Below are positions 1,874 through 64,000 of a DNA stretch of 64,000 nt, in pieces (the first letter of the stretch is position 1; the number at the start of each line of letters is the position of its first letter). Origin of the DNA: Moniliella sp. 'wahieum' (taxonomy: Eukaryota); contig RSEE01000057.1 of assembly GCA_003971905.1 (NCBI GenBank), positions 124,001 through 188,000 of the forward strand. Direction: 5' to 3'. A program made the translations under genes and the position numbers. Below the pieces are notes generated by a model, which was given only the letters and a program-made list of their open reading frames with translations, did no database searches and had not been told where the DNA came from.

Positions 1874-2666
1874 ACTAGTTACTAGTTACTATTACTTCGC
1901 TGGTCACTGTAGTCGGTAACTGTCACCGATCAATAGACACTAGTCACTAGTACAAGTAGGTGGTGCACTGCCGGGGAGATCTGAGATCTGAGATGTGCAC
2001 AAGTCGGTGACGCTCCGTGGTAACATACCACGTAACGCGGAACGCGGAACCAGTAATACAACGAGGTGAGCAACTTGAAGCTGGAAGCTGGAAACTGGAA
2101 GCTTGAAGCGTGGCTGTGCCACTGGAAAAGCGATTCGCGAAGCAGGCTGCAGGGGCTATTGTGGATTGTGGCACAGCATTGAACGGAGTTCAAGTTGAGG
2201 TTGAGAGTTGAGAGGTTGGGATCTGAGACCTGAAAGTTGAAAAGTGCATTGGACTTGCAGCTTCAGCTTCAAGCTTCAAAGCCTCAACAGCTTCAAAACG
2301 TTTTGAGAACTGAGATCCTGAGATTGAAGGCCTGAAGCCTGAGGCATGGGGAGGTTGCCGGTTTAGAAAGATGTATACGACGGTCCGTGGGACCGTGAAA
2401 GTGACGGGGGAGTGAAAGTCAGAGCAGGTCAGAGCACGTACTCTGCGCTCACAACTCGGTGTGCTTGCTGGGTAATGGGCTCATACTGAGCGCACAAGCG
2501 GAGGGCTCAGGTGGAAGGCTGAGCCTGACCATGCCCTGTCAGGATTCAGAGCTTCCAGGCCTAGTCAGGCTGGCCAATGATATAATGATCACATGTACAT
2601 CAACGACGTGCTTTTGTAAAGTAGTACCGATATAGTCCAGATTCAAAAAGCTTCAAGCTTCAAGCG
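1874..2666. repeat. Cluster of 7-bp-period palindromic repeats (ACTAGTN, AGATCTG, AAGCTTC/AAGCTGG, AGGCCTG)
   Basis: ACTAGT at 1874/1881 and 1939/1946, AGATCT at 1977/1984, AAGCTT at 2648/2655, with degenerate units in between. Confidence 0.75.
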
Positions 2667-3958
2667 AGCAGAATAGAGGTTGTAGGGGAACGATCAAGAT
2701 GAGCGAAATGATCGATAGTTTATCCGTCAATGCATCCGAACTTGTGTCTCCTTTTGCGAGAGCCCCCGCAGGCCAGCATAAGATAAGCATGGGGATCGGT
2801 GCATGGCATTGGAACAGGTAACTATCAGTAGTAACGGGAGTTACTATATCGAGCCCATGTGAGAGAGAGGATGGAAGCCTCACCTGTGACTTTGGTTCCC
2901 GAATACCGCAGGTACTGGATATACCCGGTATATATATCCCCTCCGCGATACACAGGGCTCAATTCAACGTGTGGTATCTGTATTCCGTCAGTGGCGAACG
3001 TAACCTCGCGTCAAGACCAAACCAAAGGGATTTTCTTTTATTAGCGCCTTGTGTTGGGTCGCTCGACGACGGGGGTGCAATCGGACCACATGGTCAGCAC
3101 GGGTAATCTACTTTTGGTTTGTTGGGAGAGTACCGCGCAATTGCTTTGGTGCAAGGGCAAGACGAACTCTTAACAGAACAATCTCTTCTGCGGAGCCCTT
3201 ACTGTCCCTGTCAAACCTCAAGGCCTCAATACTTAACAGTGCAGTACTCACGTTTACAGAAATGCCACGAGTGGGTCGATACGATCTGCGAGATTCTCCC
3301 AAGAGAGTTGTGTCCCCGATAACCGAGGTTCGAGGGTGTTCCCCCCCCCCGTTTGTAGCTCCCGTTGGTTGCCTCGTCTCTTCTGTCAACATGTCGAACC
3401 CCGTAGTATTAGCACCAGAGGGAACAGGCAACACTGCTCAACGTTCAACTGAACGTCCAACCCCAATGGGTATAGTAAGCGGCCTGATCACACGTGCTTA
3501 CGCCCGACCGACGGTCTCCTCCCTTCGGCCGTATACCTCGGTCGTCTCCAGTGCCGTTTATATACCACACACTCAACACGTTCACCGGATTCACCCCACA
3601 ACTTCAAGCGTCAAGCTTCAAGCTTCAAGCCCAAGCTTCATTACCTGAACACACGACCTATATGAGCATGAGTAATGGTTCAATGGTTCCTCTCCATTTC
3701 GGAACGGCCTATATGACGCCTACCATGGCATCTGTCTCTCTGCATCAGATACGTACAACATGAATGCGAACCCGGCTCAAGCCAAGGCTGCCGGAGCGCC
3801 TCCCGCAAGCAGCTATGCAGGGATACCGGTTCCATGGCACATGGCACATGGCACATGATCCATGATCCCTGATTCATCCCTCACCCCACGCTCCAAGAAG
3901 AAAAATGCATACGGGTGGACAGGATGCAATGCCATGCGAACATGAACGGGTCAACAAA

Positions 3959-4872
3959 CTAAGAGGTAGACGGGGGAGTAGGGGCGGTAGCGGTAGCGGT
4001 GGCCGTTGGGCCGGCCGGGGTGGCAGGGGTAGTAGTGGCGGCAGCCGGGGTGGCAGGTGCGGCGGGACCCTGAGTAGGGCCAGGACCGACGCTGGACGCG
4101 TAGCGTGCGACGAGCTGGCGCGCCGAGACGAAAGTCTTGCGCACGACGGGCGGGCAACGTGGGTCGGCGGTAGCCTTGTCGAGTTCGTCCGAAACGTGAG
4201 GATGGCGAAGCGGGAGAAGGAGGAGAGGTAGAAGCGCAAGCGGAGGAAGTGGATGTAGAGAATCGGGGTCGCGATCGAGTTGCGCAGGGTAATCGCGCCG
4301 AGCAAGACACGCAGAGCAATCACGAGTTCGGCATAGGCTACCAGACGCATCGCAGGGTCGTAATTCGCCTTGACCCAGGTTTGGATTTTGGTGCCGAGCT
4401 GCTTGGGCAGGGTCGTCGTCCCCGCGGGGGCGGGGAAGGCGAGCGGGATGAGGGTAGTGCGAATAAAGGTGAGCACATGGAAGAGCGAAAAGACAACATA
4501 GGGCAGCAGGGTCAACGTGATCGGGGCAGTGCAGAGCCAGTAGAGCGACAAGAGCATGTACTGGACATTCTCATCCATCGCGACGCGTTGGAGGTACGAC
4601 TTGGAGAGCGACGGGGTGCCCGTGGACTTGTACACGACAATCGCATAGCTCACCAGGGCGCCGATGTAGGCGAGGGAGTAGGACGTGGTCGGGGTCTGCC
4701 ACTTCCAGATCAGGAGGAGCGACTTGAGCGCCCACAGGCCGGACAGAAGCGTCACCACGTGGCCGCCGGCCCAGATCATGTGCGGAGTGGTTGCAGCGGG
4801 GCGCGGCTGGGGGCAGAGGCGTCAGCGCGCACGCGGCGGGGCAGGAGGGGGGCGGGAGCGTGTACGAACCAT
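3959..4872 (-). CDS. POM33: Pom33/Per33/TMEM33-family transmembrane nucleoporin/ER protein
   Basis: SYAIVVYKS, DENVQYMLLSLYW, LLPYVVFSLFHVLTFIRT, WVKANYD and FLRLRF motifs. Exon 1 is the ATG alone (4870-4872), followed by intron 4807-4869. Frameshift near 4150-4200 before the Ala/Thr/Pro tail. Confidence 0.85.
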
Positions 4873-5305
4873 GGCGGGCAGAAGAATCAGCGGCGGTGGT
4901 GGGGGGGGGGGCGGGGTGGTGGCTCTGCGGCCGCTGCGATCAGGAGCAGACGGGCCGGAAGGGCGGGGGCCGGGCGAGGCTCAGCCGCGGCAGCGCAGCG
5001 GCAGTGTCCGCTTATGTCAGCCGCTGGCGGGGCGTCCGCGTGCGTGTGCGGCAGCAGGCGCCTACGTCATACTGCCCTCGCCGCCACATCATCGAGCCGG
5101 GCCACAGCGAGCGGTGATGTTCCGATTGGGGGTCGGTGACGCGCGACTAGAAGCAGGCCTGCCCTGCCGCTTTGCACCGATCGCGCGTGTTTGCACCGAC
5201 TGGCAATTTATCCCACCGCCGCTGGGCCCCCGGCGAAAAAAATTAGGCAAGCCCGCCCGGTGCCCACCACCATCTCCCCCTCCCCGCCCCGTCTCGCCTG
5301 GCACG

Positions 5306-9060: not shown

Positions 9061-10411
9061 CGCGGTGGTGGTTGGGGGGGTACCAGAGACGATGGAACGG
9101 AGAGGAGAACGAGGGGAGAGAGGAGAAGGGAGAGATGCAACGCGGTTGCCCAAAGCTCAGGCGAACTCTTTTGAAGTTAATCGATTATCGGGTAGACGCG
9201 ACCGAAGGCCTGATGCCTGAAAGATAGGATGCATGTTCCTGAAGGCGTGGCCTTACCTGTGCTAGGGGCACTAGGGGCTGGAGTCTCGTTGGCAGCCACG
9301 ATAGTGGTGTTCGCCACACCGGTGTACCTGACATGTGACTAAGGCAGGTCTGCCGCCGCGCCTGGGCTGTGTCGCGCATCCGCAATCTAGACGATCGAGT
9401 CTCTTTTCCGGCCATCCTTAATCCTTTGACAGCCGGGCAGCTAGCCGGCGGGGATAATCGTAATCGATTAATCGATAATGGTGGACAATGGATCCATGAT
9501 GACACGATGCGTTAGTCTGGGAGATTCATGGATGTTTCTACTGAGGATTGAGGACTGATAATGTTCACGCTCAGCCTGAGCGATGAGTCGATTCGATGAG
9601 CAGCACTGATCTCGTCCATCATGCTCATGCATCATGCATCATCGAGCTCAGGCGCGCTCATGGCGCTCATCCAGCGCTCTTAGATATTAGATCTCTTCGG
9701 CATTGATATAGATAGGTCACTAGGTCACATTTCGCCCTCCAGGGCCTCCTGCGTGTCAGGGCAATCAATCAATCCGTCTGTCTTACCCAACCAGTTATTC
9801 ATCAGAAGCCTTCGCGGCGCAACTTGCCCCCAAGCCAAAGCGATAGGCGCCACTGTGCCTGTATGGGCGCGTACCGGCGCTTACCTCGCCAGCCACCCCA
9901 GCCCGGGGGCGCAGTAACTAGTAAACGGCCAAATAGTAGCCGCGGCATAGATAGCGATTGTGGCACACTGGGCTAGTGCAGTGTGGCTCGCTTGCAACCC
10001 GCGTATCTCCTCTGCTGTGATTAAAATAAAAGAATTATCGATTAGGTTCCGAGGTGTCAAAAGATCTTTTCTTGAGGGGCAAGTCTGGGCAAGTGTGCTC
10101 AGGCGCTCAGGTGCGCCCTCGTGTGCCGGCGCCCGCCCCGGTCAGCGATGGGAAGCAGCGAGATGCCAAGCTAGTGCTAGTACCTAGTCGTGATGCATGA
10201 TGCAAGTGATGCACGGTCCGCGAAGGCTTTATCAGAATGATGCATGATGAAGCTTCGATGAAGTTCATCTTCGAAAGTGCCTCTCTTCGGCAAATTTAAT
10301 CGGGATGATGCATGATGGAGATGGTGTATGACCGGATGATCCATTGACTAGCTTGACTAGCTCCACCGCTCTTCCGAGAACCCCACATTCGTCCTTTTCT
10401 GTCAGCTGGCA

Positions 10412-11502: not shown

Positions 11503-12216
11503 ATGTCCTCCCACCTGACTGCGCCGCAGGCTACGGTGCTGCTGGTTGTGCTGAACCTGGTGGGATGGGCGTGGAGTGGACAAGGCCGCGCCGTCCGCAC
11601 GTCCCCAACCACCCCGCCTGCCCCACCTGCTCCACCTTTTCACCCCGATCCCTCGTATCTCCCCGACCTCCCCGACCTCACCTCTCTCACCTCTCTGAGC
11701 TATGGGCGCGCGTAGCGCGTGGCTTTCTGCACGTCGACGGCGCGCATTTGGTGGAGAACGTGGTGGCGTTGGTGGCGCTTGGGCTGTGGGTTGATGCGGG
11801 AGGATGGAGCGGTGCTGGTGGGGACGTACGTGTTAGGATCGGTCGTTGGTCTCGGGTGCGAGGGTCGGGGGAGGGGGAGCGGGAGCGGGGATCGGTATCG
11901 GGGGAGCCAGTGCGGGTCTAGCTGGGTGGGTGGGACTGTTGGCGCGGACTTATCCTCAGCCTCGCTTGTCCGTCTGGTTACGCTTACGTCCAAAGGCTCT
12001 TTGGCCGGGTGGGGTGGGCAGACGGCGCTGCTCGCTTGGGCAGCGGGGGTTAGGTGGGCCCTTGCAGCGTATCGACGTGGTCGAGGTCGAGGTCGAGGTC
12101 GAGGCCAGAGCCGGGTCGGGGGTCGGGATGCGCGTGCGCATCTGCTGGGCTTTGTGGCGGGCCTGGCTGTTGGCCTTTTCCTGCGGTACTGCGGTGTGGG
12201 GCTGGTTAGGCCTTAG
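11503..12216 (+). CDS. Rhomboid-family intramembrane protease-like protein (frameshifted)
   Basis: GFLHVDGAHLVENVVAL (HxxxN motif), D.RAHLLGFVAG (TM6 His) and several hydrophobic helices. The GxSG motif reads GADL. Confidence 0.6.
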
Positions 12217-12876
12217 GCCAGGCTGTTGGCTCGGCTCGTACCTCGTTGGGTGATCCACGGGAGGACGCAAGGGTCAGTGAGCCCAGGGACGTCGTGCTCC
12301 ACAGGCTTAGTAACTTCAAGCTTGACCGCCATTGCTACCAATACCATGGCCGAGCCGACGCGGGGAACGTTACGCTTTATGCTGCTCGTTGCTCGTTGCT
12401 CGGTACTTGGTGACCCCTGTTCCCATAGTCAGCCTACTCTATCGAACAGGACAAGCCTGAGCACAGGACCTCGCAGTAAGTAGTAGGCCAAGGACCGCGT
12501 CTGTTGAACGTTGACCCGAAGAAACAATAGGGATGTAGCGCGCAAAACGGACCCGACAGGGAGGCTTTGTGTCCATCCCATCCTAATGTACGCACCGAGA
12601 AGGAGGTCACTGGAGCCATGTGCCATGGACTGGCAGGTGGACCCAAAGTGTGTGAGTGAATACTACCGCTTGTCCATTTAGGGTGAGATAGGGTGAGATG
12701 GGGAGACCCAAGCGATCTGCCCGACGTAGGAAGACTGTAAGCTAGCTGTCTCCATCTTTCCGCGCCGACTGACTTGCCTTACTGCCACAACACCTACACC
12801 TACATGTACACCTACATTGGACGAGACGCGCGTCTAGCTCGGGAAGGTTGCAGGGTATCCAAACACGTATCACGTA

Positions 12877-16014: not shown

Positions 16015-16092
16015 TTCTAATGCAGCTCGCCGCCCGTCTGGCCTGGCCCGGCCTGCGCCTTCTGCCCCCCGGCCTCCTCCATCGACCCTCCC

Positions 16093-19010: not shown

Positions 19011-20250
19011 GCACCGCCTCTACCAACTTATACCCCAATCGTACTCCTGCCTGTCCCGGCCTCAGCCTGTCAGCTTGCACCCAGTAGGCCCACATGCAGC
19101 CGTCGCGTTGCACATAGAATGGAAGAGACAAGACCGCTGGCGGTAGAACTTGGCGAGGGGGAGTGGTGGTAGTGGTAGTGGTATAGTCCTACACCTCTCG
19201 CCCACAGAACAGCCCACTGCATAGAACGATGGATGGGGGAATTTTACTCCAGAGAGCAACAAGATCTACATGGCGGTGATCCTTGGCGAGGGACCGCACC
19301 GTGGACGGGTGCCGGCGGTTGGAAAACCTCAACCAGGCTGAATGAAATGCGGGTGCTGCTTTGCTGTCAACACAGAGGGCACCAGGGAAAGCGGGCGTCT
19401 GCGTTGAGGCTGGTGGGGCGCAGCGAAGGCCACGGAAGAGGGCAGCCAGGCAGGGTCCGTGCACGTGCATGTGCATGTGCTCCAGGTGTGATGCGTGTGA
19501 TGCATGTGAGATTGCACGTCTCGATCTAACTCCTCTGTGGATGTCCACCCGAGCGAGGGACGATCCACGGGATCATCGATCGTTCGCGGCCTGCCGATGC
19601 TCGCTCCCAGCCGGCCTGCATGCACATATGCATCAGGACGCATGACGCATGATGCATGACGCGTGACGCGTGACGCAAGCCTGCATAGCCCCAGGCAGCA
19701 CCGCAGACGGCTTGTGCGATGGGTGGCAGAGTGTGCTGGTGCGTGCTGCCCCTGCCAGGGGCTGTGCACGGGGCAGGCGTACAGCTTACAGAGTCGCATG
19801 CAGCTGTGGCGGAGGCTGGCGCGCTGCCTGCCGAGCAGCGCACCAGTACGCTTGGCACGGCCGCTGGGCGGTGGGCTCGTGCGCGCGGCTGCCAGCGCCC
19901 ATGTGCGGTGGCCAGAGGCAGTGCGGGCGCTGCCTGGGCCGGGGTATCGCATGGCGAGTGTGTCCTCGTCCACCGGCAGCCAGCCATGCACCATGCATCT
20001 TCGGTCCCTCCCTGTCCATTCACTCGCACTACGCAACACCCACACACTGCCCCCGTAGCCCTCCCCCACGCTTAGCTCAGCGCCCGCCCTTCCCACTGTC
20101 CTGGTTGGTTGATCCATCGGGGGCGCCCTTGCTCGGGCGCGTTTGTGCCTCCACCCTCCATCCCCTTCTCGCCTTTCCTCTCCTCTCCTCCTCTCTCTCT
20201 CTCCTCCTCTCCTCTCCCCCCCTCTCCCCCCCGCTCCCGCTCCCGCACCC

Positions 20251-21463: not shown

Positions 21464-23461
21464 ATGGCACCAAGGCCATGCCCTGTCGTTGGCAATAAGA
21501 TGCCAATGCTAGCACCAAGCCATGCGTGTTGTTGACGATGGCCGTGGGGGCAGCTATTGAGGGGAAGGGGCATTGCACATGTGGTTCCAGTGACCAGACG
21601 GGACACTGCTTGCTCGATTGCTCTGCATTGATCTTGATTCTTCGTTCGTTTTTGATTTAGTTGCTACTGATGTGGCCCTGTGCGTGTGCTGTGGGGGTGA
21701 GCAGTCTGGCCTATCCACCGCTGGGGCCCTCGCGCTTGGGTGGGGGCTGTGGCCGATGGCCAATGCCAATTACGGGGAAAAGCCAGCGCTTACCCTTGCC
21801 CTTGCCCGCGCCAAAATCCAGTTGATTGAAATGCACACTTCGTTTTGGATGGCTGGCATCGCTTGAGGCCATGCATGCTGCGGTAGCGGTGGGAATTGAG
21901 AACAGGAACCGCCGTTGGCGTTGAATGGGGGATGGCGTGGAAAGGAGGCAGAGAGCCCTCGGCGTCCATCCATCCTGAGATCGCTCAGATCGCTCAGATC
22001 GCTCCCCGACCCGCTCCGCCGCGCCACCCATCCCGAGTGGAGACGCACGAATAATACCCAGCACGCTGTGTGCTGACATAATCGGCCGGCGTGGCGCTGG
22101 TTGGGTGAATAATAATGACTTCCGCGTGATGAACGAGTCGGTACACTTGTGCCCGCATCCCCACTCAGTTCCAGATGTACCTCGTGACGCTCAAGGTGGT
22201 CGACTTTGTCGGGTGCTATGTGATGGAAGGGTGATCAAGGCCTTAGTTGGTAGCCGACCAGCGACCCAAGGCCATTATCACCAAGCGGCGTGAGAAGCAC
22301 GAGGTGCGGCGCAAAGAGCGCATGGCCCAGATGGTGGCCGCGGCACAGGCTTAGTAGGTGGAAACGAACGCGCCAGCATCCTCAACCCAGCGTGGCTGTG
22401 ACGAAAATGGGAACTTTACTGTAGATGTGCATTGCCCGTTGATCACTGTGGGCCGAGGAAAGTAGGACCAAGTGAGGCGAGAGAGAACAGGAGAAAAGAG
22501 AGAGATTGAAGACAGAACTTGGAGCGGATCGATCTACCAAAGAAGGGCCCAGGCGAGCCAACGGGACCACATCAGAAGCAGTAGCTAGTAGTACTAACAA
22601 CCACTGAGAGACGCGTGGCGCAGCCTCTGTTGTGCACGAAGGACGGCACTACTACTAAGCCTGATACAATGTCAAATGGAGAAGGAGCTATTGTGGGGGG
22701 AGATGCAACCGCCACCGCTACCCCAATCAGAGGTTCACCCGCTATTGCGAACCCAACTTTGCGTCGGTCCCCATCGTATGAGGGGTGTATTGCGACGGCC
22801 ACTTCCTGTGAAGTAGATAAATGCACCGGTCCATGTAGCTTGCATGCCCCTCCTTTATGGGCGCGGCTCTCCTCGAACCCTTTCCCGTCCCAGCTGTCCT
22901 TCCCATAACCTCCCCTCCCGAGTCTGTGCCGGTACATATACATATACTCGGAGCCATCATCCTGCGATCGCCATCATCTTCAGTATTATCATTTCTGCAA
23001 GGGCGCTAAGCACAACGGGCACACAAGGGACACGCGCATTGGAAACGGGAGACGGAATGGGATGGTGAGAAGGCGTGCTGAAGTAACTTGAAGATGCGAC
23101 GAGGGAAGGGGGACATAGGAGGGAGAAGAGACATAATTGTGGAAAAGGATAAAGGGAGGGCGGAGGGAAGGGGAGGAGGGTAATATACAAGGACAAAGCG
23201 CGGGACAGCGGGGGGGTGTAGATAGGGGGAAGGTTGATGGGAGGGAGGTAGAAGACGGCAAGGAGAGAGGCAGAAAAAAGGTGGATGAACCGTAAACCCG
23301 TAAGGCAAGTAGGGAAATAGGGTAAGCAATATAGGTCGTGGATTGGTCAAGCTGTGATGAAAGTGACTGTTCAAGTGAACGGGGGGAAAGCAGGCAATTA
23401 AGCTGTTAAGCCACTGAGGTTAAGCCTAAGCACACGAGGCTTCACGTCTTTTATCAGCACC

Positions 23462-23489
23462 AAGCTTCAAGCTTCAAGCTTCAAGCCTC
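23462..23489 (+). repeat. (AAGCTTC)3-AAGCCTC heptamer array
   Basis: Three perfect AAGCTTC units, in the spacer at the 3' end of the arrestin-like gene. Confidence 0.9.
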
Positions 23490-26248: not shown

Positions 26249-28227
26249 GGCGGGGGAATGGCGGGGCGACGGTATAGCGCTGCGGTCGTGGTGGGGGGTG
26301 GCAGCAATGTGCGTGCTGCAATAGATGAAAACGGAATGGCAGCGGCAGGCCGAATAGCTAATAGTAGGGCTGCTGAGGCCCAAACTGGGTTCTGAGATCT
26401 CGGCCTTTCCCGCCTCGATCGCAGGCGGGGGGAACAGAGTTCGGGAGATAGGATGAAACGATGGCTGCAGTTCTGAGATGCAACATGCAATAGGAGATCC
26501 CGGGGGTTGAAGCGTGCCACGTGAGACAGACTGCCACAGACTGCCACGGGTGGTTCGCACGCTCTCACTCTCCGCAGCAGCTGCGCGTGGCTGCCCGGCT
26601 GCTCCCTTCGGTGCCACGCCTTGCCACTCGCACGCTGCCGTTTCCTGCGGGCCTTCGCCTCCTCCGGCTTACCCCGACGATGCACGCCACGCGTCACGCG
26701 TCACGAGGGTATCACCGGCCCATCACCCATGAGCACCGATGGACGTCGGACAATGGCGAGGCAGTGGCAACGCTCTGGGATGCAAGGCACCTGTCCATGG
26801 CGTCAATATCATGTGACATGGGGTGTGTGATGTCTCGGCCGCTCGCCACCCTGCGGGGCGACGCATGCCTGATGCCTGATGCCTGATGCATGACTTACAT
26901 GTTGCAGTTTGTTTCATCCTGGCATAATCGTAATCAAGCTTCACGCAATCGTGAGTAAGACGTTTTGATCTTGCAGTCCCGTTGGGGAAAGATACTCGGA
27001 TGGCTGAAAGGGTGTCCGTACAACGAACTCGGCCCCCGCGAAACTACGAGCCACTGGTTACTCACGTGTGACATCACACATCCTCTCCCCCCGCAGCTCC
27101 GTCCGTCGGCTGAGGGTTATATACCTGGAGGCAGTTTGGCTGAGTCCTTTTTGCTTTTGCGCTCTTTTGCGGTGCTGATGCGCCGGCACGTGTGGGGCCA
27201 GATCGGTAGTATGGGAGAGGGAGGGAGGGGAGCATCAGTGAGATGGGCCCAGTTGCATTCGGGAAAAAGGTCAGGAATTAATTGAGAGAGGTATATACTC
27301 TAGATGGAGTGTGAATCGGTGTGGCGGCACTCTCGAACGACCCACACACAGATAGATGTGGGACGACGGATGGCAGGATGGGGTACTCACAGTGTACCAG
27401 TGATGATCGATGAGTACTGCATGCCCTGTGCCTTAAAAAGCCTCCGTACCGATATATATTAACCAGATTAACCACCTCTGCGGGCCACCCAGTGCCACCC
27501 CCATATATACTACGTTCAACGTTCGTGCACATGAGGGACTGGACGGTGAAATCACCCACACTGCACCCCTGCTGTACCGGGTCCGACCTGGTCTGACAGG
27601 TCCGCTTGTCCGATGCAATAACCTCAGCTCGATCTCAATCCTCTCTCAATTGAATCCCCTTTTCCCATCTTACAACAGATCTCAATCTGCATCGGTACCA
27701 GTACTCAACTCAGGTATCCACAGTCAACACACCTTCAATAAACGACGTTTCCTATAATAACACATCTCCTGGTGCTGTCAATATATCAATCTCGTGCGAT
27801 TGCGATATGCTGGTGCGATGCTGCCCTGCTACCATGCAGCCATGTTTCGGCAGCACTGACCCAGTCTTGCTCAGCGCGGTCCATGTCCTTCTATAAATGT
27901 GTGGCTACCGGCTACTGTGACGTTGCGAAAAATCTCTCCCACAGCAAAAACACGTCCCGGTCTTCATCAACGTGTGCGCAACACACTACACCACAGGGCG
28001 GTGGTCATCTGACCGGCATGACCGATCATGTACATGTCGGTCATGAACAGGAGCGAGCTGGGTCCCTATAGGGAGCCTAGAAACTGGGATGAAGGTTCAC
28101 CGTGACCGTAGTGTCACATACTCTTCCTCAAGCGGAGACCAAACGTCAGCGTCGGGTTTCTAGAGTGGAGCAAACCATTATGTCGCAGCAAGATATGTCA
28201 TCAAGGGCTTCATCATGCATCACAGCT

Positions 28228-37140: not shown

Positions 37141-40100
37141 AAAGGCACACATTTCAGGCTAACAAGAAGGGGGGACGGGGCACTATATCAAATGGGGGTG
37201 TTCGCGGCGGCGGGGGGGGGGTGGTTCAAAGAGGTCGTCTGCTGTCAACCGCGTGTGGGCATTAGGGGATAGAAAATTGATGGGTAATAGGGGGGGGGCA
37301 ATCGGATAACCCATTGCTCAGACCTTGAGCCGAGATACCCAACCTGAGTGATGCCGGCGATGGAAGTTGACGAGGCAGCCTGCCCACTTCTTCGCCAGGA
37401 CAGCCCACTCAGCGCTTGTGGCGACCTTCCATTGGCTTGGAATTTGATTATCAACCAAGGCTCAGCGCTCTTCAGTCTCACAAGGATCAATCATTCTCAG
37501 CTCAGCCGCTCAGCTTTTTTGAAGGCGAGTCGGCCGCAGAGGGAGGTTGACGATATATTGTTTTGAGCTTTGCCTCTCTCTTCTCTCGCATATTCTCTTC
37601 ATCAATGGCCGCCTACACGCTCTTCATCCTCGGCCTCACAAGCCCCCCGGGTATATCCAGGCTGGATACCAGTGGGAAGAGCGTCCATAATTCTTGTGCT
37701 GGTGGCACCAAGGGCCTCCTTTACAACGAGACCCACTTCGACACAGGGGGGGTGGCCTCTTCGTGTCTATAGTAACGCCGTCTGTATATAACCCTGTGCT
37801 CGACTGCTATGATCCTTTGCTCCCCTCGGCAACGCCGACATATGCAAACTTTCAATTGCAACGCATCCGAACCAGGGGACTTCGTACAGCCTGCTGACAG
37901 TGCTGACATGTGGCACGTGTGATGCACCTGCTGGCACCTGCTGCCATTTTGAAATGTGGCGAAAAAACCAGGGGAAAGGCCTACGATCCTGAGACTGAGA
38001 TGCAAGGTCTGATGTTCAGGGGAGGCTGTCGCGTCGCATCAGGCCTCGGGATCGATACAACCAGATGGCATAGAGCCACCATCTTCTGCCATATGGCCAC
38101 CCCGCTTCATCTTGCACTAACCCCCCCTCCCCTCGGCAAATCCGCAACCGGGGGAGGAGGCGGACCGAGTTAGCTCCGTGTGTAAAAGTCATTAACTTGT
38201 TGCAAAACCCACCGCAAAGGAGGAGACTCGGCGAGCGACGTATACTCAGTTGTTCGGCAAAAATGGGTTGTGAGTGTGAGCCTGCGTGAGCATTGTGAGC
38301 CACAGCGCCATGTGATGTTGAGGTACGAAAACATTGAAGGGGATACGCGTGTGTACGGCGTGGTGAACGACAGTCAACGTGGTCAACGTGAGCGCGTGAA
38401 CATCAACGTCAGTGCCATTATCACATGCAACGTTCAATCTGTTCCACATGTTCAGCAGGCGTCGACATTTGTGCCTCCAACAACATCTGTATCATCAACT
38501 TCACAGAGCCCACACAAACAAATCAATCCCTTTTCACAACCACGTCCCCGACGCCGTAGAAATGAACGATCTTATCAGCAGGGCAACCCGAACTGTAGTT
38601 GTACACGGCAGTTCAGTATGCCCAGCAAACATTCACAACGTTTAGAACGCATTCGGCTGAATTGTGTGTTTGGCCTGCGATGGATTCGGTGGTCGACACG
38701 TTCGTCACCTCGCTCGTTCGCTGTAGTACGTGATGCGGAAAGAAGTGTTGTGCACCTTTTCATCGACCATCGACCATCGATCAGCATCAGCATCAACGGC
38801 GACCGGTCGGTCACCTATAACGCTGAACGCGGCGGTTGCCGCCATCGCCGCCACAGTTTTGTCCAGCTGTGGCGCCACACTGGTGTAGTGGCGCCGGTAG
38901 CAAGCCCGGGTCATTTTTCCTTCCAATATTCCTTCCTGGAGGGCAGAAATCTTCTCTGGCCTCTGTAGCTCATGTGCAATGCAATACAGCATCAACTGCG
39001 TACTCTCTGGTCTTCTATGCCGATACACCCACCATCGAAGGGGCCTATATATGGCCACACGAGGGAGAAATCGGGGGGTTGGCGATATCCACCCAGGCAA
39101 GGTCGACTCGGTTGGAAACGCACGTGGATGATCGATGATCGATGAGGATTCTTGGCTGGCGTAGCGCCTGATACCTGATGCATGACTGCACAACCGGTTA
39201 CCGGTTACCTAAGGCCTAACCGCGGATTACCCAATGCAACTCTTCCAGTTCCCGCCACGTGTGTATCAGGATCATGCATCGTGCATCATGCATCGTGCAT
39301 CACATGAGGCACCCTCGTGTGTGACATGTGACATGCATAAAACAGCTACTTGGCAGGCACTGCTCCCGTTGCATGGGACCGCGAGGTGTGTCAGGGTGCC
39401 ACATCTCAGGGTGTGTCTCGTGGTGTGTCTCGGCATAGAAAAGGGGACACTCGGTTAGTATCCGTTCCTATCCACATATGGAAAGGCAGGGAAAGCCACA
39501 ATACCTATCCGGCACTTGTCTCCCCTGCCGCAGATGGCTGTTCCTGAGGCCTGAGGCGCGGCAAGGGGAGAGCCAGGAAGAACATGGGGAGAACCCCAAT
39601 AACCGCGGTAACCGGAATAACCTGAATAGCCAACCGAAAGCCAAACATACGAGCACGCCGTGGCTGCCAGATTATCGATCGTCTCGCGAACTGGGCCAGT
39701 GTTCAACGTCTGAACGTTCAAGTTCACGCTCAGCGCTCAACGAGGTCAACGCCTTCGATGAGTGTGATGGTTTAGTAGCCGCCTTGTTGGCACCCATGCG
39801 AAATGAGGGGGGGTGGTCACCGGTCATAGTTCCTGGAAACACAGAAGCCGTGCGATGCCATCTGCCGTCTGTATACTTGCCGCATGGGGGGGAGACCATT
39901 GCAGCTCTATTTGATGTGCCTGGGGTGTGGCCGGTGGGAGCCGGACGCCCCAATTCGCAGATCTTGGCGTTATATATTCTCCGTGCCTTCCCCTGGTGCC
40001 GCGGTCACAAATCCAGTGATTTTCACAGGGTCCAACCCCCCCTTCCCCCCCTCATTTGAAGCGAGAGGGGGGAGGGGGAGGAAGGAGAGGAGGGGGGGCG

Positions 40101-43970: not shown

Positions 43971-44682
43971 TCGGAAGTAGAGATTGATGCTGCGGCCCCT
44001 TTGCCCGCTCAATTTCAAAGCCAGGCAGTGTGGGGTAAAGTGGGTAGCCAGAGGCTGCAGATTTCAATTTTAGCTTTCAGCGCTGAGCGCCTCAGCGCTG
44101 ATAATGATTTCAGCAATGATCGAGATCATCGATTAAATTACCGCGTCATACGTCAGTACTCAGTCCGGTTCGGTTTAATTTGAAACAGCCCGCAGCCGCA
44201 AAGCGCGCAGCAACAAAAAGTGCGTCAAGTGCCGCCACCACCTTTCGTCCGCCTCGGGCCACTTGTTTCCGCGCTCCCCGTGAGCCAGCTACGCCCAGCT
44301 GCGCCACCGCCATGCCTCACAGCATGAGCAGGGTTTAATTACCTCCCGTCTGGCGCCCCGACTGAGTGCCGCAGCGGAGGCTAAGCGCTAGGCGCTAGGC
44401 TCGACAAAGATATCTTGTCCTGAGCTGAGACGAACAACGGTGCTGGGCAAGCCGAACTCAACGGCGGGCGGCACTATACAACTGTGACATGTGGGTTGTG
44501 AGTCGTGAGTGCTGAGCTGATATCATCCTGTATTTTGTCGATCTGGGCGTTGGAGCGCGTTGAACGACCAGCGGTTTGAACTGGATTCGTATCTGTGCAT
44601 ACCTATACTGTGAGTAAACTGATACTTCTTGCCTTCCATCCTACCATCACCATCACTGTCTCCCCAGCCCCGCCGCCACTTG

Positions 44683-49118: not shown

Positions 49119-50763
49119 GTGGCGGCAGGAGACGAAGCCCAGCAGCGGCGGTGGCCGGCGGCCTGTCCTATTAAAGGCTGCCGGCCGCCGCTGAATGGGC
49201 AGTGTGCATGCCGCGACGCTGATCACCGGTCCTGGTCACCGATCGTCGTGATTGGTCAATGTGATCAACCAGGAATCCAGCGGCAGCCACGCCAGCATGG
49301 CGCCTGTCTCATGCGCGGGCGGCTGCATGCGGCAGGTGCTGAGCCAGGATGCAGGGCGCCGCATGCAGGGTGCCGAATACAACCACACTGGACCCTTGCT
49401 TAGCGCTCATGCCAGGCTGCACGGGGCAAGTGTGTGCATGGGCGGGTGGGCGGGGCAGCGGGACAACAAAGCATGCCGCCAAGGCAGGCAAGGCCGCGGG
49501 GTGCGAGCGAGTGCTCCCAGGTGCGCGGTGCTCCCAGTGCTCCTCCAAGCTCCACGCCTCAGCGGCTCCGCAGCCTGAGCTGCCCCTCTCTTCGGTTCGT
49601 CGTCAGTACTCAGTGGGAGCGGGCCCATGCGGGCACATGTGGGGGCGGCGGCGCTGCTGTCTGTCTGCCTCCCCTCGCCCACGCCATAGCGTCATGCACG
49701 TCATGGACCACGCTCATCGATGGGGCAGTAGCCGTGTGTGAAGAGAGCCCCCATGCACTGCGCCCGTGCCAGGGGCGTGACGATCACTGAGCAACCCTAC
49801 TGCATCCGGCCGGCTGCGGCAGGGCGCCTGTGCCGGTGGACTGTCCAGTGTTCCAGTGCGCTTTGCTGGACAATAAGGCTTAAGGCCAAGGGGTAGAAGG
49901 ATAGTCGATATCAAGGTAACGCGTGCGCTGCGTTTCCTGCCCAGCAACAAATCGAGCTCCCGAAATGGACTTCTTGCAGATCTTATTACATCGCTGGCCG
50001 AGGCCGTCATGCACACATCAACGTCAACCCCAGTCTGTGGATTGGGGCACATGCCATTTCACCGGTCTCCATGCTATCCGGCCGGTGGACGTCTCGTACA
50101 GTATAGATATCACCTGTGCGATCAGTCACATGTCACACATGTCACAGCCGATTGAGCCAGTGCCCAAAAGCTCCTTCCCCGTCCATCTCCTTCCCCACCG
50201 TCAGTTGTCTCTTGCGTCTCAGCTTTCCCCCCCCACTTCACCATGTTCAACGTTCAACATTCCTGACCGCATTTGAAAAGAAGAGCAGAAAAAGATACCG
50301 AGAACAAGAAGCGTGAAGCGCTTCAGTCTTGGAAGTCGGCCAATGCGTGGTAGCTACCATGAAAGAATGGGGGCTAGGGCGAAGCACTAGACTGTGGGCG
50401 ATCAAGTGGGTGAGCGCGATAAATCGGTTACACCAGTGAGAGCCCAGAACCGCGGTTGTTCGTTAACTGAGTACCTACGCTACCAAGCCATGGACGATTG
50501 CACTGTGCAGGGTTGGACAAGCTATTGACGGTACTGACGCTAGTCCAACCTTCAAGCTTCAATGCAACAGGGAGAGAGGAAGGAGGGAACCAGGGCGCGA
50601 CGGTAACCAATTCGGAGCGGTCGAGTCGCGGAACTCTATAGCCAGGTCCGCTTGCCGGTGATATGGCCGATCAAACCATCACATCAAGTGGTGCCACATG
50701 CCACCACTCCAACAATTTTAACCACTACGGCGCCACCGCGATAGTGATGCAGCTGTCTTCATA

Positions 50764-51178
50764 ACGCGTAACGCGCGTAAAGCGCAACGCGTGACATGTA
50801 ACTAGTGACTACAGGGACTCTGCTCCACACGGCATATGCTGCACGCAACATGATGGAGCCACTCGAGCCACACTCGCTGCTACATTAGTTGGTTACTAGG
50901 ACTAATTATTGTCGAAGATCATTATATATTGACCGCCCACAATAGGAACATCATTAACGTCTCCTCAGGCCTCAGGTGAGGCCTCATTAATCATTGGCAT
51001 CAAGTACTACTGAGGCCCTGCATATGGGGTGCTACATGTTATCGATCAGCCCTGGCCAGCTCTTCCGTGAGGCCGTGAGGTGCATCCGGCGATTCCTCCT
51101 GCACTGTGGCAGGTTCATGCAGTCTTTCCTCAGATCTCAGATGCTAACATGGTTACGCGGTTACGCGTTACGGTTACG
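50764..51178. repeat. Cluster of 7-bp-register mixed palindromes
   Basis: ACGCGT-G-ACATGT-A-ACTAGT-G at 50787-50807, AGGCCT-C-ATTAAT-C at 50979-50992, and AGATCTC and TTACGCG units at 51131-51178. Confidence 0.75.
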
Positions 51179-52967
51179 AGAGAAAGGTCAGAACGCTTTT
51201 AAAAACCTCTCTTTTTGCCCTCCCCTTTTTGCCGGTTAATACCACTGTCGGTAGTATAGTAGTACATGGTGGTTATTAATGAGCTATTGTCAAGGTCGCA
51301 GTAGAATGCGTGGGATAGTTCTCTCCTACTATCATGCCCACTTCTCAGTTGGAGGATGTTGAAACGTCACCGTGGTCCCGGTCACTCCGTACGCAGGCTG
51401 TTGGCGCAGGGAGCCGGATGGGCAGAAAGCTTAGACCGCAACCACCATCATCCCCATTCATTTTACAGCTCCAGAGGTTCTCCACCCCAAACTAATCCTT
51501 GAGATCCTAATCCGATTCTGCAGAGGAGCGTCCGGCCGGGGGACTGGTTACGTGTTTTTGAAAATCCGGCAAGTTGGCTTTCTCATGCTGCATGATGGGA
51601 GTGGAAAGCAGGGCTTCAGCAACGTCATCAACCCGTGTACACAGCCCAGTATCCTTCCTACTTACCACGGCTGTGCTGCGTACCTAAATCTGTGTACGTG
51701 CCAAAGGGGGTATTGCTTTCGCCGCGGTGAATGGAAAGTTCCTGTTCCATTCGGCCTCGGAACACATGGACGACGGGGCTGGCGCACGGTGCAACGCCCA
51801 AGACCACACAGGCCATACGCCAATGGTGATGAGACTTACAGGTCCCTTGAAGCTTGCGATGTGCCACTTAACGCGCGCGACGTTCCTCATACTCACATCT
51901 CTCCCCAACTTCAGGATGCTCATTGGGGAAACTCTCAGCCGTCTCGTATCCGTTCATAGCGTATTACCCCGTAGTCGTCCCCCATTGGTGCAATCACAGT
52001 GTGGCAAACGCGAACGAGTACATGGATTGTGCCACGCTCGGTGGCTTCACCCCGGTTCTTTCCTTGGGCGCATTCCGTCAGACATTCCCTCCTGGAGGGC
52101 AAGATTTTTCTCTAACCTCTGTTGTGCAATGCACAACTACACACCGGCAACTGCCTGCGCTCTTTGGTCTTCTGCAGCACCTTCGCCATGTTCTAGTGTG
52201 CCTTCGATCTTTTTCTTTATCGACAGGGGGATTGGGTATGTTTGTCAATCCGAGCGATGGGGACCGCCCCAACTCATTCCCAAAGGGGAATTATACTGTA
52301 GAATTTGTTAGCTGCCCCCCCTCGCTACTACTCTAGCCGTTGCACCAGGCGCTTTAATTGCCTAATACATGGGACCCGAGGGAGGGGGGAGGAAACGGAC
52401 CTGTGCGGCCATTGCAACGCGGCGACGGAGAGCGGATAAAAGGGCATTGTGGCCAAGGGAGGGAAACCCATTGGGGCGGAGCCGGCGCGAGGAGGGGTGC
52501 TGAGCGCACCCGTGGTCAGCAATCTTCTTGTGTCCGTGTCGTTCCGTTTGTTGCAAGAGAAGGTGGGGTATGTGCACAGGCCACGCCAGGATCACCGGTC
52601 ACCGGCCCACCACAACTCTCTTGTAGTACTTGCAACATCATGCATCAGGCCCTACAGGTCACAAGTCATCTAGTCACGGACTACTAATGCGTACTAGGGC
52701 TGCACGCGGAAGCACTAGGGTTGCGCAGGGTTAGGTAACGCACGGTGGGGCTGCCCCCCTGCGGCCGGGACGCCAGCTGGCAGCGCACGCCTGGGCAGCC
52801 GCATGGGGGCGCAGTCGGGCTGCGCCGGGGGAGCTGGGTAATAAGCAAGCGGGTGGGCGAGTGGGCGAGTGGGCGTGGGCCGGCTGGCGTAGCTGGGATG
52901 GGGTTGGCAGAGCCAGGGGTGTGCAGCCTGCTTGCTGTTCTGCTCCTCGACCTGTCTTGTTGCCGCC

Positions 52968-57181: not shown

Positions 57182-57212
<31 letters not shown>

Positions 57213-60185: not shown

Positions 60186-61432
60186 GCTATCCTCCCCCTT
60201 ACCTTGTGCGGCTCCCGTTTTCCCTCCACGATACCCGCTGCTGGGACCATCGTTGTCACTTGCCAGACCTGTATCCCAGCAACACCATTTCTGCCCTCAT
60301 TTTCCAACTTAGCTGTCGACTCCCATCATATTTTGCCGCCTGGCAGTCTTTCCTTCTAGCAGCCCGTTTATAAGACAGAGCCTTATGACCAGTTTGCCGA
60401 TGAAGTAGAACGTGTGGCTCGACCACACAAGACCAAAATCTCACCAGAGAGTCATCGCGTCTTCGGCCTTTTGCCGTTGCCACTGAACGGGTTTCACTCA
60501 TCTATCCAGCGGCGCCCTCTTCCGCCCCAGCACCTGTCCAACTCGGCCCCCTCAGGCTGCAAAGATCAGTTACCCCATTGTACTGTGTAGCAAGCAGTCC
60601 ACCACTTCATTCGAGAAGGGCATTCCCTGACTTGCTGGTAGGACGAGAAGTCACGGCAGGTGTGAATTCTAAGTAATTCTAAGGCTCGAGTGCTAACTAT
60701 AGGACGAGGATTGCTTTGGGGACTGTGTAGCAGCTGATGGGGCAGACAACGTTCGGAAGGAGGAGCAAACTAGTAATGACGCAAAACGCAAGGCCATCTT
60801 TGGGTGGGCATCTGTTGGCCGCGAGCGCGATCAGGCGTGGTACCTGCGCGACCTGAAGCCTCCAAAAGGCAGACGGCACTCCTTGGGGCATGGCGGGGCT
60901 TGAGAGGGAGCTGGGTGGGGCTCCTGGTTGTTCTCGCTCTGCCTGTTCTCGCTCTGCCCATCTCTTCTGGTTGTCTGGATGGGTCAGTGACGTCATGGTG
61001 ACGCGTCCCTGCTAGGCGTTTAGGCCTTGGGCGTGGGCGGCAGTGTGTATTAGCGCTTTGCTGTTATTCGCGCTTTGTGCGCTGGCTCCTTTCCAGGGTC
61101 CAAGCCTTCTGCCCAGTGTGTGTGTGCTCGGTGTCACGTGACTCGGAGGGTTGTTCGTCCAGATCTCAGATCGTTCTGATCTCAGATCCCAGACGACGTT
61201 TGAAAATTTGAGGCGAGGCGCTGGCGCCGGCCTCTCACTTGTCCTTTGCCCGTTCCACCGTCGCGGGCTAGCCGCCCCAGCCAGCCCCTTTCTCTTTCTC
61301 TTCTCTTGCTCGTTTCCGTTTCTTGCCGCTTCCCCTTCCATCTCCACCTCCACCTCCACCTCCACCTCCACCACCACCACCGCCCCTGCGCCCTCTACCC
61401 CATCCCCTCTAGTGTCGGCGCTCTGCAGGGAG

Positions 61433-63428
61433 ATGGTACACCATGGCCTTCCCTTCCCGATCTGATGCCCCCCCCACCACCGGGGCGCCCAAGACGACAG
61501 CTTAGGCCCGCGGCCCCGGCCTCATCAAATCAAACTGCCGCCGCCTGTGCGGGGCAAGCCGCGTGTGCAAGGCATTGCCACCGCGCCCATTCTGTCCAGC
61601 CCTGGGCGGGTCCAGTCTCCGCGCACGCGTCTCGTCGATCTCAGCAAGGTGGTGGACGAAGAAGATTCCCCCCCCCTCGTCCCTCCCCTGGCCCCTCCCA
61701 CCTGGCCAATGACTACTTTTCTCTCGGCAAGGTCTCGCCCACTGTGAGCACGGGCTTGGAGCTGGGCCTCGGCCACCCTTCCAGCCAAGGCGACCTTAAG
61801 TTTTTCCGTCCCAACGCTGTGGACCCAAGCACTCTGGCCTCATTGGCCCAACATGCTGCCTCTCGCACCGCCGTCCTGCCCAGCACCCTTTTCTCCCCCC
61901 CGCCTCGCACAGAGGTACCCCGCCCTCGCCCCGACCGCGTCCGCGGTCGGAAGATATGGGCCATCTATTTGGACCTCCTCTCCGCGGACCCTACCTTGGC
62001 CCGGCCGTGCAGCCCATGGGGGCGAGTTTGGGTACACTACCGCCACATCCACGCCCACAGGCGATCCCAATCGCCGTCCCTCCTACAACAACAAGTCCCC
62101 TTCCCGCGATAGTGCGCGCAGCCCCGTCTCGGCCACCCGTTCCTCAGCGGAAAGTCTGTATGCCACTTCGTCCGGATGGTTAGATACCAAGCCTGTGCTC
62201 GGATCCTTGTTTGGTGGCGAGGCACCTTCGCACAACCAAGCTGGCTTGCCTCCCATGGGCCAGCAACTGGAACCCGATCCTGCACGCGCAAAGGTCTTCT
62301 CTTCGCTTCAAAAGCGGGTACGGGACGGTTCGCTGCCTTCCCCCGGTCGGCCCGTGAGAGTAGTAGAATACGGATCGGTGCGTGGCCGTGCGTTCCCCCT
62401 GTTGTCCCACTTGATTGGCACATTGGCCGAGGCCTTGTCCACTTCCGCCCCCGCCCGAGAGGAGGGGACCGACATGATCATCATCCATGTTGATACGGAA
62501 GGGACAGACTTTCGCGGTGTCATGGCTGCGCTTCACACCGATCCAACCTCCTACCTTTCCGAGGGGTTTTCACGTGCCTACCCTTCCGCCCATGTGTTTC
62601 CCTACTTTACCACGCATCCCTTTGGTACGCCTGTCTGTCCTCGTCAAAGCGTGGACCTTGGCATCTCATTGATGGACCTTCATTGGGCGCATCCACCACC
62701 AACGGATCCCACCGCCCCTTCCTTCCCCCTACGTCGGTCTTCCGCTTCCGCTTTCTCTGTCACCCCTCTCGCTGCCTCTGAGCATGCGGGGGAACTGAGC
62801 CGATTCCTCCTAAGTCGAGCACGGGAACTGCGACCGGGAGGGCAATTGGTGGTGGCCTACATTGCACGGGATGAGAGGGTGCCAACGGACCATTCCTCTT
62901 CTTCGCATCGATCCGACAAGGACGAAGTGTGGACGGTGCTCAACTCTTTGCTCGGACCTTCGATCCAGCGCTTGGTTTCCTGTGGAATGCTCAAGGCCGA
63001 TGTAGCGCGTGCGATGATGAGTCTACCTCTGTTCCCACGTACGCAGAAACAAAGTCTCCACGCACTCCGGGAACAGGAGGCGTTATGGCAAGTGGAATGG
63101 GCCTGTGGTCTAGGCGATCTACCTTGCCCTTCGCCCCCCGAGTCTCAGCCCCATCCATTGCGCATTCCCCATCCTGCTTGGAGCTCCTACTGCGCCGGCT
63201 ACCTCGCTCGCGACGGCTATGCCGAGCATTTGGTTCTGCTCATCAAGAACTTGTATGAAGCGCATTGGCGTGCCCTCCTTTCTGGCGGGGCCTGAGTAAG
63301 GGCGCAGTAGCCTATACTCTCGATGCGCTCTACGACGTGATCCAGAGCCGCATCGATGACATCCCCCTGAAGAATCCCTACCACGGATCGAGTTTGATGT
63401 GTGCATATACTCCCTGCGACGACGCTAG
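61433..63428 (+). CDS. SABATH/Methyltransf_7-like SAM-dependent methyltransferase domain with a long Pro/Ser-rich N-terminus
   Basis: VVEYGS..G, HVD...TDF, FG.PVCP.QSVDLGIS.MDLHW and FLLSRARELRPGGQLV motifs. Ends IEFDVCIYSLRRR*. Several frameshifts. Confidence 0.7.
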
Positions 63429-64000
63429 TCGTGCCCTCTCCGCATCATCCTGTCCTGCCCTGACCTCTCCTGTCCTTCCTTGCTTCCTTGCTTCTTTCCT
63501 TCCCCCCTCTCTCCCTCTCTCCTTCACACTCCCCCCTCTCCCTACTCAATCCGGTCCTGTTTGATGACGAAAAGAGGGAGGAAAAGTCATTGTTATATGT
63601 TCCCTTGTTGTTCCATTCTCATCGTCGTGTAAACCCTCTTCTCGCTCCTGGGGGGCTGTTATGGAATGTGGTGTGCTATCCTGTACACAGCTAAGCGTCG
63701 GGGAAGGATGGATCTCAATTTGTCCCTGGTGTGTCGGTGCGGGGTGGCCCTAGCTCGAGATAAAGACGGGGCCGGGATAGAGACTGAGCTGAACGTTGCA
63801 CTGAACGATGGTTGAGCCACAAAGACAATCAAGGTGAGCTCTCAGCCTTAGCCGCAAAGGTGAATGGTGAGCTTGGTGTAAAGCTTAAAGCTTGAAGGTA
63901 GAGGCCACTATAGTCACTACATGCGGAGCCCGCAAAACATATCGATCTTGTCGCTGCCAACGAGACTCATGTGCCAAGCGGAAGCAATCGTTCCTTGGCA

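Follow-up and report, generated by a model that had tools for sequence, protein, structure and literature searches.

A recurrent short structure, which looks like a scar rather than a protein-binding site, is scattered through the non-coding DNA of a 64-kilobase (kb) stretch of the fungus Moniliella sp. 'wahieum' (GenBank assembly GCA_003971905.1, contig RSEE01000057.1, positions 124,001 to 188,000 of the forward strand). We refer to this whole stretch as the window, and all counts given here come from this one window. The elementary form of the structure is T-N-A-N1-N2 / N2'-N1' / T-N-A-N1-N2 or its reverse complement, and the object most commonly met is a 12-mer. A pentamer that starts with TNA stands in direct repeat, and the filler between its two copies is the inverted complement of the last bases of the pentamer, usually 2 nucleotides (nt) long and sometimes 1 or 3, with a net gain of 7 base pairs (bp) per unit. 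A pentamer joined to a 2-nt inverted filler yields automatically both a hexamer palindrome of the type A-N4-T and a 7-bp register, the two features to which an earlier sequence-only reading of this DNA had drawn attention. With belief and doubt about equal, we propose that these structures are the scars of a lineage-specific break-repair or cut-and-paste process acting at TNA sites, and that arrays of them formed by repeated hits or by slippage.

The palindromes and their register were compared with 200 dinucleotide-preserving shuffles of the window made in 500-bp blocks. At all 25 positions cited in the sequence-only reading the hexamer named there is present, and its impression that A-N4-T palindromes recur in a 7-bp register agrees with frequencies far above those of the shuffled controls. 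Tandem Repeats Finder returns numerous short period-7 arrays. When an exact array is defined as a perfect repeat of at least 14 bp, the window holds 41 such arrays of period 7 (shuffle mean 4.86, maximum 11), of which 22 contain a 6-bp palindrome, and all 22 palindromes are A-N4-T. Period-7 arrays with an A..T palindrome thus number 22 against a shuffle mean of 0.09 and a maximum of 1, and those with any other palindrome type number 0 against a mean of 0.5. At period 6 only 3 of 85 arrays contain a 6-bp palindrome, none of them A..T, and at period 8 a single array of 15 does, the one at 9461, itself a member of this family of loci. Pairs of A..T hexamers at a lag of 7 occur 21 times (shuffle mean 0.39, maximum 3) and only once or twice at each lag of 6 or 8-12; 8 of the 21 pairs combine different cores (shuffle mean 0.34, maximum 2). 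A lag-7 autocorrelation, which the sequence-only reading had proposed to compute, is also evident without regard to palindromes: five-base identity reaches 441 at this lag versus 108-224 at lags 8, 10, 11 and 13, and the trinucleotides in largest excess at lag 7 are TTA, TAA, CTA, TGA, TCA and TAG. Over the window as a whole there are 265 A..T hexamer palindromes versus 178 ± 14 in the shuffles, and T..A palindromes are near expectation. As a separate observation, the C..G and G..C hexamer palindromes are depleted (297 and 295 versus about 352 and 357 in the shuffles, standard deviation about 18), which is the opposite of the A..T class.

The palindromes follow a rule that ties them to TNA words. 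Among TNA-N4-TNA 10-mers the N4 is palindromic in 79 of 172 (46%), whereas in the 15 other a-n-b frames the proportion is 4.1-7.8%. The effect is confined largely to a spacer of four: replacing N4 by a spacer of 2 gives 25 of 91 (baseline 23.6%) and a spacer of 8 gives 1 of 98, neither of which is an effect, and a spacer of 6 gives a weak one (6 of 144 versus 1.65%). The 79 palindromic hits resolve into 60 loci, in which 15 cores out of a possible 16 are represented, the commonest being of the W-S-S-W type, for example TGCA, AGCT, TCGA and ACGT. The paired TNA words share their middle base in 58 of the 79 hits, whereas in 11 the two bases are complementary and in 10 they differ in another way; in the 58 sites with identical TNA copies the middle base is C or G in 47, in line with the earlier description of the frame as mostly T(C/G)A.

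Coding and non-coding DNA were separated with a mask, an approximate codon-usage score derived from Pfam-supported exons rather than a gene annotation, which marks 32.8% of the window. In the non-coding-like remainder 77 N4 cores are perfect palindromes, 36 contain a single mismatched pair and 47 contain two, compared with 5.8%, 35.9% and 58.3% in the control N4 cores. Palindromy is all-or-none, in that the excess consists essentially of perfect palindromes only. The equal abundance of non-palindromic heptamer arrays, which the sequence-only reading had named as the outcome that would speak against it, was not found; non-palindromic TNA-N4-TNA sites in non-coding-like DNA number 83, and base-frequency arithmetic predicts about 90 by chance. 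The same rule emerges from an unbiased search for any 4-mer whose two copies flank the inverted complement of its last 3 bases, which found 91 sites where 12.5 were expected. In these, A occupies position 2 in 85%, T stands just upstream in 71%, the middle base is C or G in 86% and the centre of the palindrome is C or G in 78%. No conserved extended flanks were found around sites in the window.

The length of the filler is narrowly set. On both strands of the window, repeats of TxANN are separated by an inverted-complement filler of 0 nt in 6 cases (shuffled mean 3.4), 1 nt in 13 (1.1), 2 nt in 62 (0.17) and 3 nt in 3 (0.13), and there are 0 cases with 4 or 5 nt. Among TxANN repeats at lag 7, 62 of 89 have an inverted-complement spacer, versus 54 of 793 (6.8%, the chance level) for all other pentamers. 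Shortened forms are barely enriched (L4 k1, 9 versus 3.5), and forms of period 8 are few (3 of 29). We saw no clear case of a filler copied from the pentamer's T end: 11 sites at first suggest one, and in 9 of the 10 that were inspected both rules give the same dinucleotide. There is likewise no strand asymmetry, the side of extension being uncorrelated with the middle base (16 versus 12, p = 0.57).

Insertions that copy the sequence beside a break, in direct and in inverted orientation, are also made by synthesis-dependent microhomology-mediated end joining (MMEJ), of which such flank copies are, in the accessible portions of three papers, a hallmark of snap-back and loop-out synthesis (PMC2943611, PMC5728401, PMC4912351). 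Templated insertion by alternative end joining of this kind, or of the polymerase-theta type, at breaks that favour TNA (for example topoisomerase or meiotic breaks) and with no hairpin or element involved, would account for a product with direct and inverted copies of flanking bases and for the regional clustering of loci described below. We nevertheless regard this as quite unlikely, since such repair varies in length and template, and the same partly accessible papers describe products that vary widely, whereas the size here is nearly invariant and tied to TNA: of the 78 junctions with a filler, 62 have exactly 2 nt, and it is five bases that are copied directly. No source of breaks with a preference for TNA came to light either.

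Identity at lag 7 stops abruptly two bases past the 10-mer. Beyond the 10-mer, identity at lag 7 on either side is 0.57, 0.55 and 0.35 at bases 1, 2 and 3 and then falls to the background of 0.28. The 53 matched runs at lag 7 have lengths of 3 bases in 4 cases, 4 in 6, 5 in 13 (the mode), 6 in 9, 7 in 7 and more in 14, so that 32 of 53 have fewer than 7 matched bases, that is, less than two full units; the largest copy number of any exact array is 3.7. Of 47 isolated sites, 37 show duplication of the pentamer, made up of 28 one-sided and 9 two-sided cases, and the other 10 lack it on either side; extension to the left is statistically independent of extension to the right. Four loci (1879, 2278, 9455 and 9619) show a single pentamer with fillers of varied length, most clearly at 9455-9479. 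The principal loci are as follows, with coordinates listed without strand assignment.

1874..1896, ACTAGT-T array, with pentamer TTACT and spacers AG, then A
1938..1951, CACTAGT x2
1976..1994, GAGATCT x2.7, core AGATCT
2258..2340, long degenerate run of TCA and TGA words about 7 bp apart, including AAGCTT units
2648..2665, AAGCTTC x2.6
3604..3631, four TCAAGCn units, namely TCAAGCG, TCAAGCT, TCAAGCT and TCAAGCC
9455..9479, TAATC-G-TAATC-GAT-TAATC-GA-TAAT, with inverted-complement spacers of 1, 3 and 2 nt
9619..9642, TCATG-C-TCATG-CA-TCATG-CA-TCAT, core ATGCAT
10191..10204, TGATGCA x2, with more TGATGCATGA sites at 10238 and 10306
12206..12219, TTAGGCC x2
19643..19677, five units in register with two cores, namely TGACGCA, TGATGCA, TGACGCG, TGACGCG and TGACGCA
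23461..23486, CAAGCTT x3.7, the longest exact array
26688..26705, CACGCGT x2.6
26865..26893, ATGCCTG x3.6, non-palindromic and one change off the rule, continuing into TGATGCATGA
39127..39145, GATGATC x2.7, core ATCGAT
39176..39219, TGATGCATGA, then ACCGGTT x2.4, then TAAGGCCTAA, three cores in 44 bp
39320..39335, TGTGACA x2.3, core ACATGT
39543..39557, CCTGAGG x2.1, core AGGCCT
44077..44162, four clustered 10-mer hits, TCAGCGCTGA twice, TCATCGATTA and TCAGTACTCA
50126..50258, TCACATGTCA and GTTCAAC x2 (core AACGTT)
50762..50808, ACGCGT units, then ACGCGT-G-ACATGT-A-ACTAGT, three palindromes in one 7-bp register
50963..50995, CCTCAGG x2, GAGGCCTCA and TCATTAATCA
51129..51172, CTCAGAT x2 (core AGATCT) and TTACGCGTTA
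52592..52605, TCACCGG x2, core ACCGGT
63879..63895, TAAAGCT x2, core AAGCTT

Two features of these loci stand apart. Within the degenerate run at 2258..2340 lies a perfect 14-bp palindrome, TCAAAACGTTTTGA, at 2293-2306, exactly where the run switches from TCA phase to TGA phase, and it looks like a small inversion or strand switch within the run. A 22-base string, GCCTGATGCCTGATGCATGACT, is shared at 95% identity by the distant heptamer loci at 26874-26895 and 39166-39187; either the same process has converged on it or it is a small dispersed repeat, and BLAST found no longer match around the pair.

The arrays in this list might suggest a simpler origin, in which heptamers that by chance consist of a palindrome plus one base expand as hairpin-prone microsatellites, by fold-back of a 5-bp stem with a TNA triloop and slippage or flap protection. 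Such units are self-complementary and a single strand of them can fold, and two-copy arrays do fold with a 5-bp stem and a TNA loop. Arrays reach 3.7 copies, the longest array (z = -2.9) and the array at 3600-3640 (z = -2.4) are more stable than their shuffles, and non-palindromic variants one change away have expanded too (GAAGCTG x4.7, ATGCCTG x3.6 to 4.1). Hairpin-assisted slippage accounts for these variants and for the few longer arrays. However, in 6 of the 8 arrays that were folded, stability does not exceed that of the shuffles, the 32 runs of less than two copies and the phased rather than ragged edges are unlike those of hairpin-forming tandem repeats, and what recurs is no single sequence but a rule, TNA together with any 4-bp palindrome. 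Palindromy is all-or-none and tied to T-N-A, a comparable effect is absent when the spacer is 2 or 8 and weak when it is 6, and differing cores share one register. Chance seeds would also be too few, as the rule is obeyed by 2.1% of random heptamers and by 22 of the 41 arrays. We therefore consider this origin unlikely, and the earlier judgement that ordinary slippage does not suffice and that something specific acts is borne out by the runs of under two copies, the phased edges, the tie to TNA and the mixed cores.

The loci are distributed unevenly. Only 2 of the 79 palindromic hits lie in the coding-like 32.8% of the window, which, within the roughness of a mask that is not an annotation, confirms the absence from coding exons remarked on earlier. 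A..T hexamers occur at 1.9 per kb inside the mask and 5.2 per kb outside it, and the density of the motif in non-coding-like DNA is about 1.8 hits per kb (77 in 43 kb). The loci are clustered (variance/mean 2.26 per kb bin, chi-square 93.8 with 62 degrees of freedom), with dense patches at 1.9-2.7, 9.1-10.4, 38.7-39.9 and 50.1-51.3 kb. There are no hits at 36-38 kb, which is ordinary non-coding sequence, and none in the GC-rich stretch that forms the divergent promoter of the POM33 and Brix genes. From a reading of open reading frame (ORF) and Pfam coordinates, made without proper gene models, clusters lie both upstream and downstream of genes.

Restriction to non-coding DNA and clustering in certain intergenic regions, for example at 9.1-10.4, 38.7-39.9 and 50.1-51.3 kb, are also what would be expected if the sites were functional cis-elements, bound by a regulatory or nucleosome-excluding dimer, or by a factor family, that reads TSA-N4-TSA, and kept by selection in intergenic DNA. 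Within the sites, the palindromic core has been preserved better than the positions flanking it on the outside, and some cores, such as ACGCGT, presumably resemble known fungal sites. On the evidence of the sites themselves, this account would be improbable, and the dimeric factor reading TSA-N4-TSA that had been put forward appears poorly supported. With 15 of 16 cores in use there is no defined core sequence, and proteins on duplex DNA cannot require self-complementarity of an arbitrary core; the TNA words are in direct and not inverted repeat (58 with the same middle base versus 11 with a complementary one); and some long non-coding stretches, such as those at 36-38 kb and in the POM33/Brix promoter region, are empty, while clusters occupy both sides of genes. 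Furthermore, absence from exons is equally expected of any 7-bp insertion. Because 7-bp insertions shift the reading frame, selection would remove scars from exons, and this is enough to explain their absence there. If the sites should instead prove to be bound or conserved, they would represent an unusual class of structure-defined regulatory element.

The same observations make an assembly or sequencing artefact scarcely credible, for the pattern is sequence-specific, avoids coding sequence and comprises 60 separate loci with 15 cores. Nothing was found in its favour, and to our knowledge there is no error mode that produces inverted-complement fillers.

The reading of the loci as break-repair or excision scars rests on two properties. 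First, self-complementarity of an arbitrary core can be made only by copying or joining the complementary strand, for which established chemistry offers two routes, the opening of a covalently closed hairpin away from its tip and snap-back synthesis. Second, a direct repeat of fixed length beside the filler fits a staggered cut or a target-site duplication. Together, the filler and the direct repeat look like the outcome of templated DNA synthesis or of hairpin opening. Part of the earlier suggestion of a symmetric mutation or repair mechanism survives accordingly: mutation or repair is favoured by the all-or-none palindromy, the use of 15 of 16 cores, the pentamer repeat and the inverted filler, and strict symmetry is not, as the filler is found at the N1N2 end only.

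We hypothesize that the process would begin with a 5-base staggered cut at a TNA site, or with a 5-bp target-site duplication made by a mobile element that later departed. The end bearing N1N2 may then have formed a hairpin that was opened two bases off its tip to give P nucleotides, or may have undergone snap-back synthesis, before the ends were rejoined. Nucleases of the Artemis type open hairpins two bases from the tip. Each scar would offer two fresh TNA sites, and new hits on these, or slippage, could produce both the short arrays and the in-register strings of different palindromes; local reinsertion could produce the clustering of loci. The candidate enzymes are a low-copy, hairpin-forming cut-and-paste element or a host nuclease that nicks 5' of TNA. 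As a speculation, an enzyme that nicks just 5' of T-N-A in duplex and hairpin alike might explain the position of the cut as well as the one-sided filler. In its most specific form the proposal would be that an endogenous or domesticated hairpin-forming nuclease or transposase, undescribed and now or recently active, cuts 5' of T-N-A with a 5-base stagger and leaves fixed, self-seeding 7-bp scars, each a 2-nt mirror filler with a pentamer, across the non-coding genome, where they would form an appreciable part of the intergenic DNA; we advance this form tentatively and think it rather doubtful. By our own arithmetic, the density of scars requires a rate no higher than the order of 1e-4 per generation, provided that they last for a few per cent of sequence divergence, and since such a rate suffices, a low-copy element outside the window is compatible with the data.

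A number of findings weigh against scars of this origin. The window contains no element with terminal inverted repeats and a TNA-type duplication (3-, 5- and 7-bp duplications were searched), and Pfam scans of 160 ORF translations (147 and 13, with an earlier 8 overlapping) revealed no transposase domain. The filler is one-sided, with none clearly from the T end of the pentamer, and it is nearly always 2 nt with hardly any nibbling, whereas known hairpin footprints are varied and their fillers may come from both flanks. The pentamer, T-S-A-N-S, lacks the two-fold symmetry usual for transposase targets. At the 47 isolated sites, the 10 with no extension and the 9 with extension on both sides compare with about 7 and 3 from a pure model, by our own arithmetic, and the mixed-core strings are explained only in part, about half of the outer flanks matching the adjoining core in our reading of the loci. 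Transib is reported in the accessible part of its description to prefer GC-rich sites, unlike the fixed T and A here (PMC1131882). Finally, the case is drawn from one 64-kb window, and no insertion event is shown by polymorphism or by a sister genome.

Four other routes to the pattern were considered and set aside. A 3-bp TNA duplication with a 4-bp remnant of transposon ends, in the style of Tc1 or Harbinger, is out because the core has 15 forms and because the direct repeat mostly reaches 5 bases, just 4 of the 53 runs being 3 long. An exact target duplication of 7 bp, whatever the heptamer, is out because non-palindromic TNA-N4-TNA sites are at about chance level. Filling of a long hairpin would give a perfect 10-bp palindrome and is out because complementary middle bases, seen in 11 hits, are far outnumbered by identical ones, seen in 58. 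Decay of perfect 14-mers is disfavoured, since outer dinucleotides match in about half of the sites versus about 83% predicted by neutral-decay arithmetic for an intact 10-mer.

Our literature search found no published description of the pattern, and subscription journals or other articles may contain one. The pattern acts like a target-site duplication with P nucleotides, and we assign it to no named transposon family. The closest parallels are the footprints of elements that form hairpins on flanking DNA, which are opened by host nucleases and rejoined; the available part of one account ascribes this to hAT, Transib, RAG1 and a MULE (PMC5499845), and an excerpt of another describes flank hairpins and repair footprints for Tol2 as well (PMC8151067). 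Like the footprints of hAT, Transib and MULE and the coding joints of V(D)J recombination, the loci described here keep both copies of the duplication with inverted-complement junction bases between them. Unlike them, they have a filler of 2 nt in almost every case, drawn from a single flank and with hardly any nibbling, and the duplicated word is 5 bp rather than 8-10 and must begin with T-N-A. Transib, as far as the accessible text goes, has a 5-bp target-site duplication as its hallmark, and a single basidiomycete, the soybean rust, is reported to carry this superfamily (PMC1131882). The duplication length of Transib and RAG resembles ours and their flank-hairpin chemistry the one proposed here, within what those partial sources state; their GC-rich target does not fit, given that T and A are fixed here and only positions 2 and 5 are C/G-rich (PMC1131882, in part). 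No Transib-like ends or transposase were seen in the 64-kb window. The 8-bp duplication of hAT differs from a period of 7 with a 5-bp direct repeat.

Three further comparisons can be made. Sleeping Beauty, of the Tc1/mariner group, leaves the footprint CAG at a TA target-site duplication according to the portion available (PMC8151067); this is likewise a small fixed scar made of a duplicated target and a few bases, and a short palindrome-like word, but as far as that portion goes its filler is constant and derives from the element ends, whereas here the filler is copied from the flank and has 15 forms. The weak target consensus of Tol2, given in the same excerpt as TNA(C/G)TTATAA(G/C)TNA with an 8-bp duplication (PMC8151067), also places TNA words around a symmetric target, though on that description the words are 11 bp and not 7 from start to start and the consensus is weak, unlike the near-absolute rule found here. 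The 'palindromic microsatellites' of Fusarium are mitochondrial elements of a different kind (PMC7218506).

If break-repair or excision scars are indeed what these loci are, they would constitute a clean natural mutational signature that can be read from sequence alone in a little-studied fungal lineage. They would report a specific DNA-cutting activity and point to an enzyme that can be searched for in the genome. Palindromes resembling restriction sites, together with a 7-bp periodicity, would then arise without selection, and a single type of insertion could rival point mutation in shaping intergenic DNA. Scars of this kind could serve as polarised markers in population and phylogenetic work, and, because they cluster in some intergenic regions, promoters may be altered by them.

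The window itself is eukaryotic nuclear DNA with a G+C content of 51-68% per 2-kb bin, and its genes are ordinary fungal ones. Three of its genes are placed as follows.

3877-4821, minus strand, POM33
4682-6634, plus strand, Brix/SSF1 protein
55836-56387, minus strand, TBP

Further genes and domains include an MFS transporter, a Na/Ca exchanger, ATP synthase subunit h, zinc ribbons of the RPB9/TFIIS type and a sedolisin pro-domain. The best named match of POM33 is in Tilletiaria anomala (56% identity), followed by Violaceomyces, Moesziomyces, Thecaphora, Malassezia and Ustilago (46-51%). The Brix protein is only about 40% identical to those of named fungi. The source therefore belongs to the Ustilaginomycotina, among which it lacks a close annotated relative; two other database proteins are nearer, at 70-79%. 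The POM33 and Brix/SSF1 genes stand head to head (3877-6634), and proteins 68% and 72% identical to the two are adjacent on a single 16.8-kb contig; this co-location of both homologues on one contig indicates that a relative has kept the arrangement. Part of the long ORF that lies upstream of the Brix domain is probably non-coding, because matches span only about 60-69% of this ORF.

Other repeats were also seen. A dispersed duplicate of about 0.85 kb (43092-43950 and 54083-54929, 78% identity) has broken reading frames and no Pfam match and could represent either a gene family in decay or a mobile element not yet known; at 41793-41824 lies a short inverted piece related to it. This paralogous pair was examined for an insertion event, and its aligned part contains no heptamer site; the sole repeat-type indel between the two is a 5-bp tandem duplication of TTGCA in one copy only. 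Exact hexamer arrays of ACCTCC (1594-1628), CCATCT (23842-23884), CTCCAC (61342-61372) and TCGCCC (57184-57212) are partly alike, are unrelated to the palindromic heptamers and all fall at least partly within coding-like sequence. At 7256-7311, in or beside the MFS transporter gene region, a 29-bp unit is perfectly duplicated in tandem (TTGCAGTTTGGATTCGACGTAAATACACT x1.9), and 16 uninterrupted G (40232-40247) form part of a 21-base G-rich tract (40232-40252) that adjoins G/A-rich low-complexity sequence.

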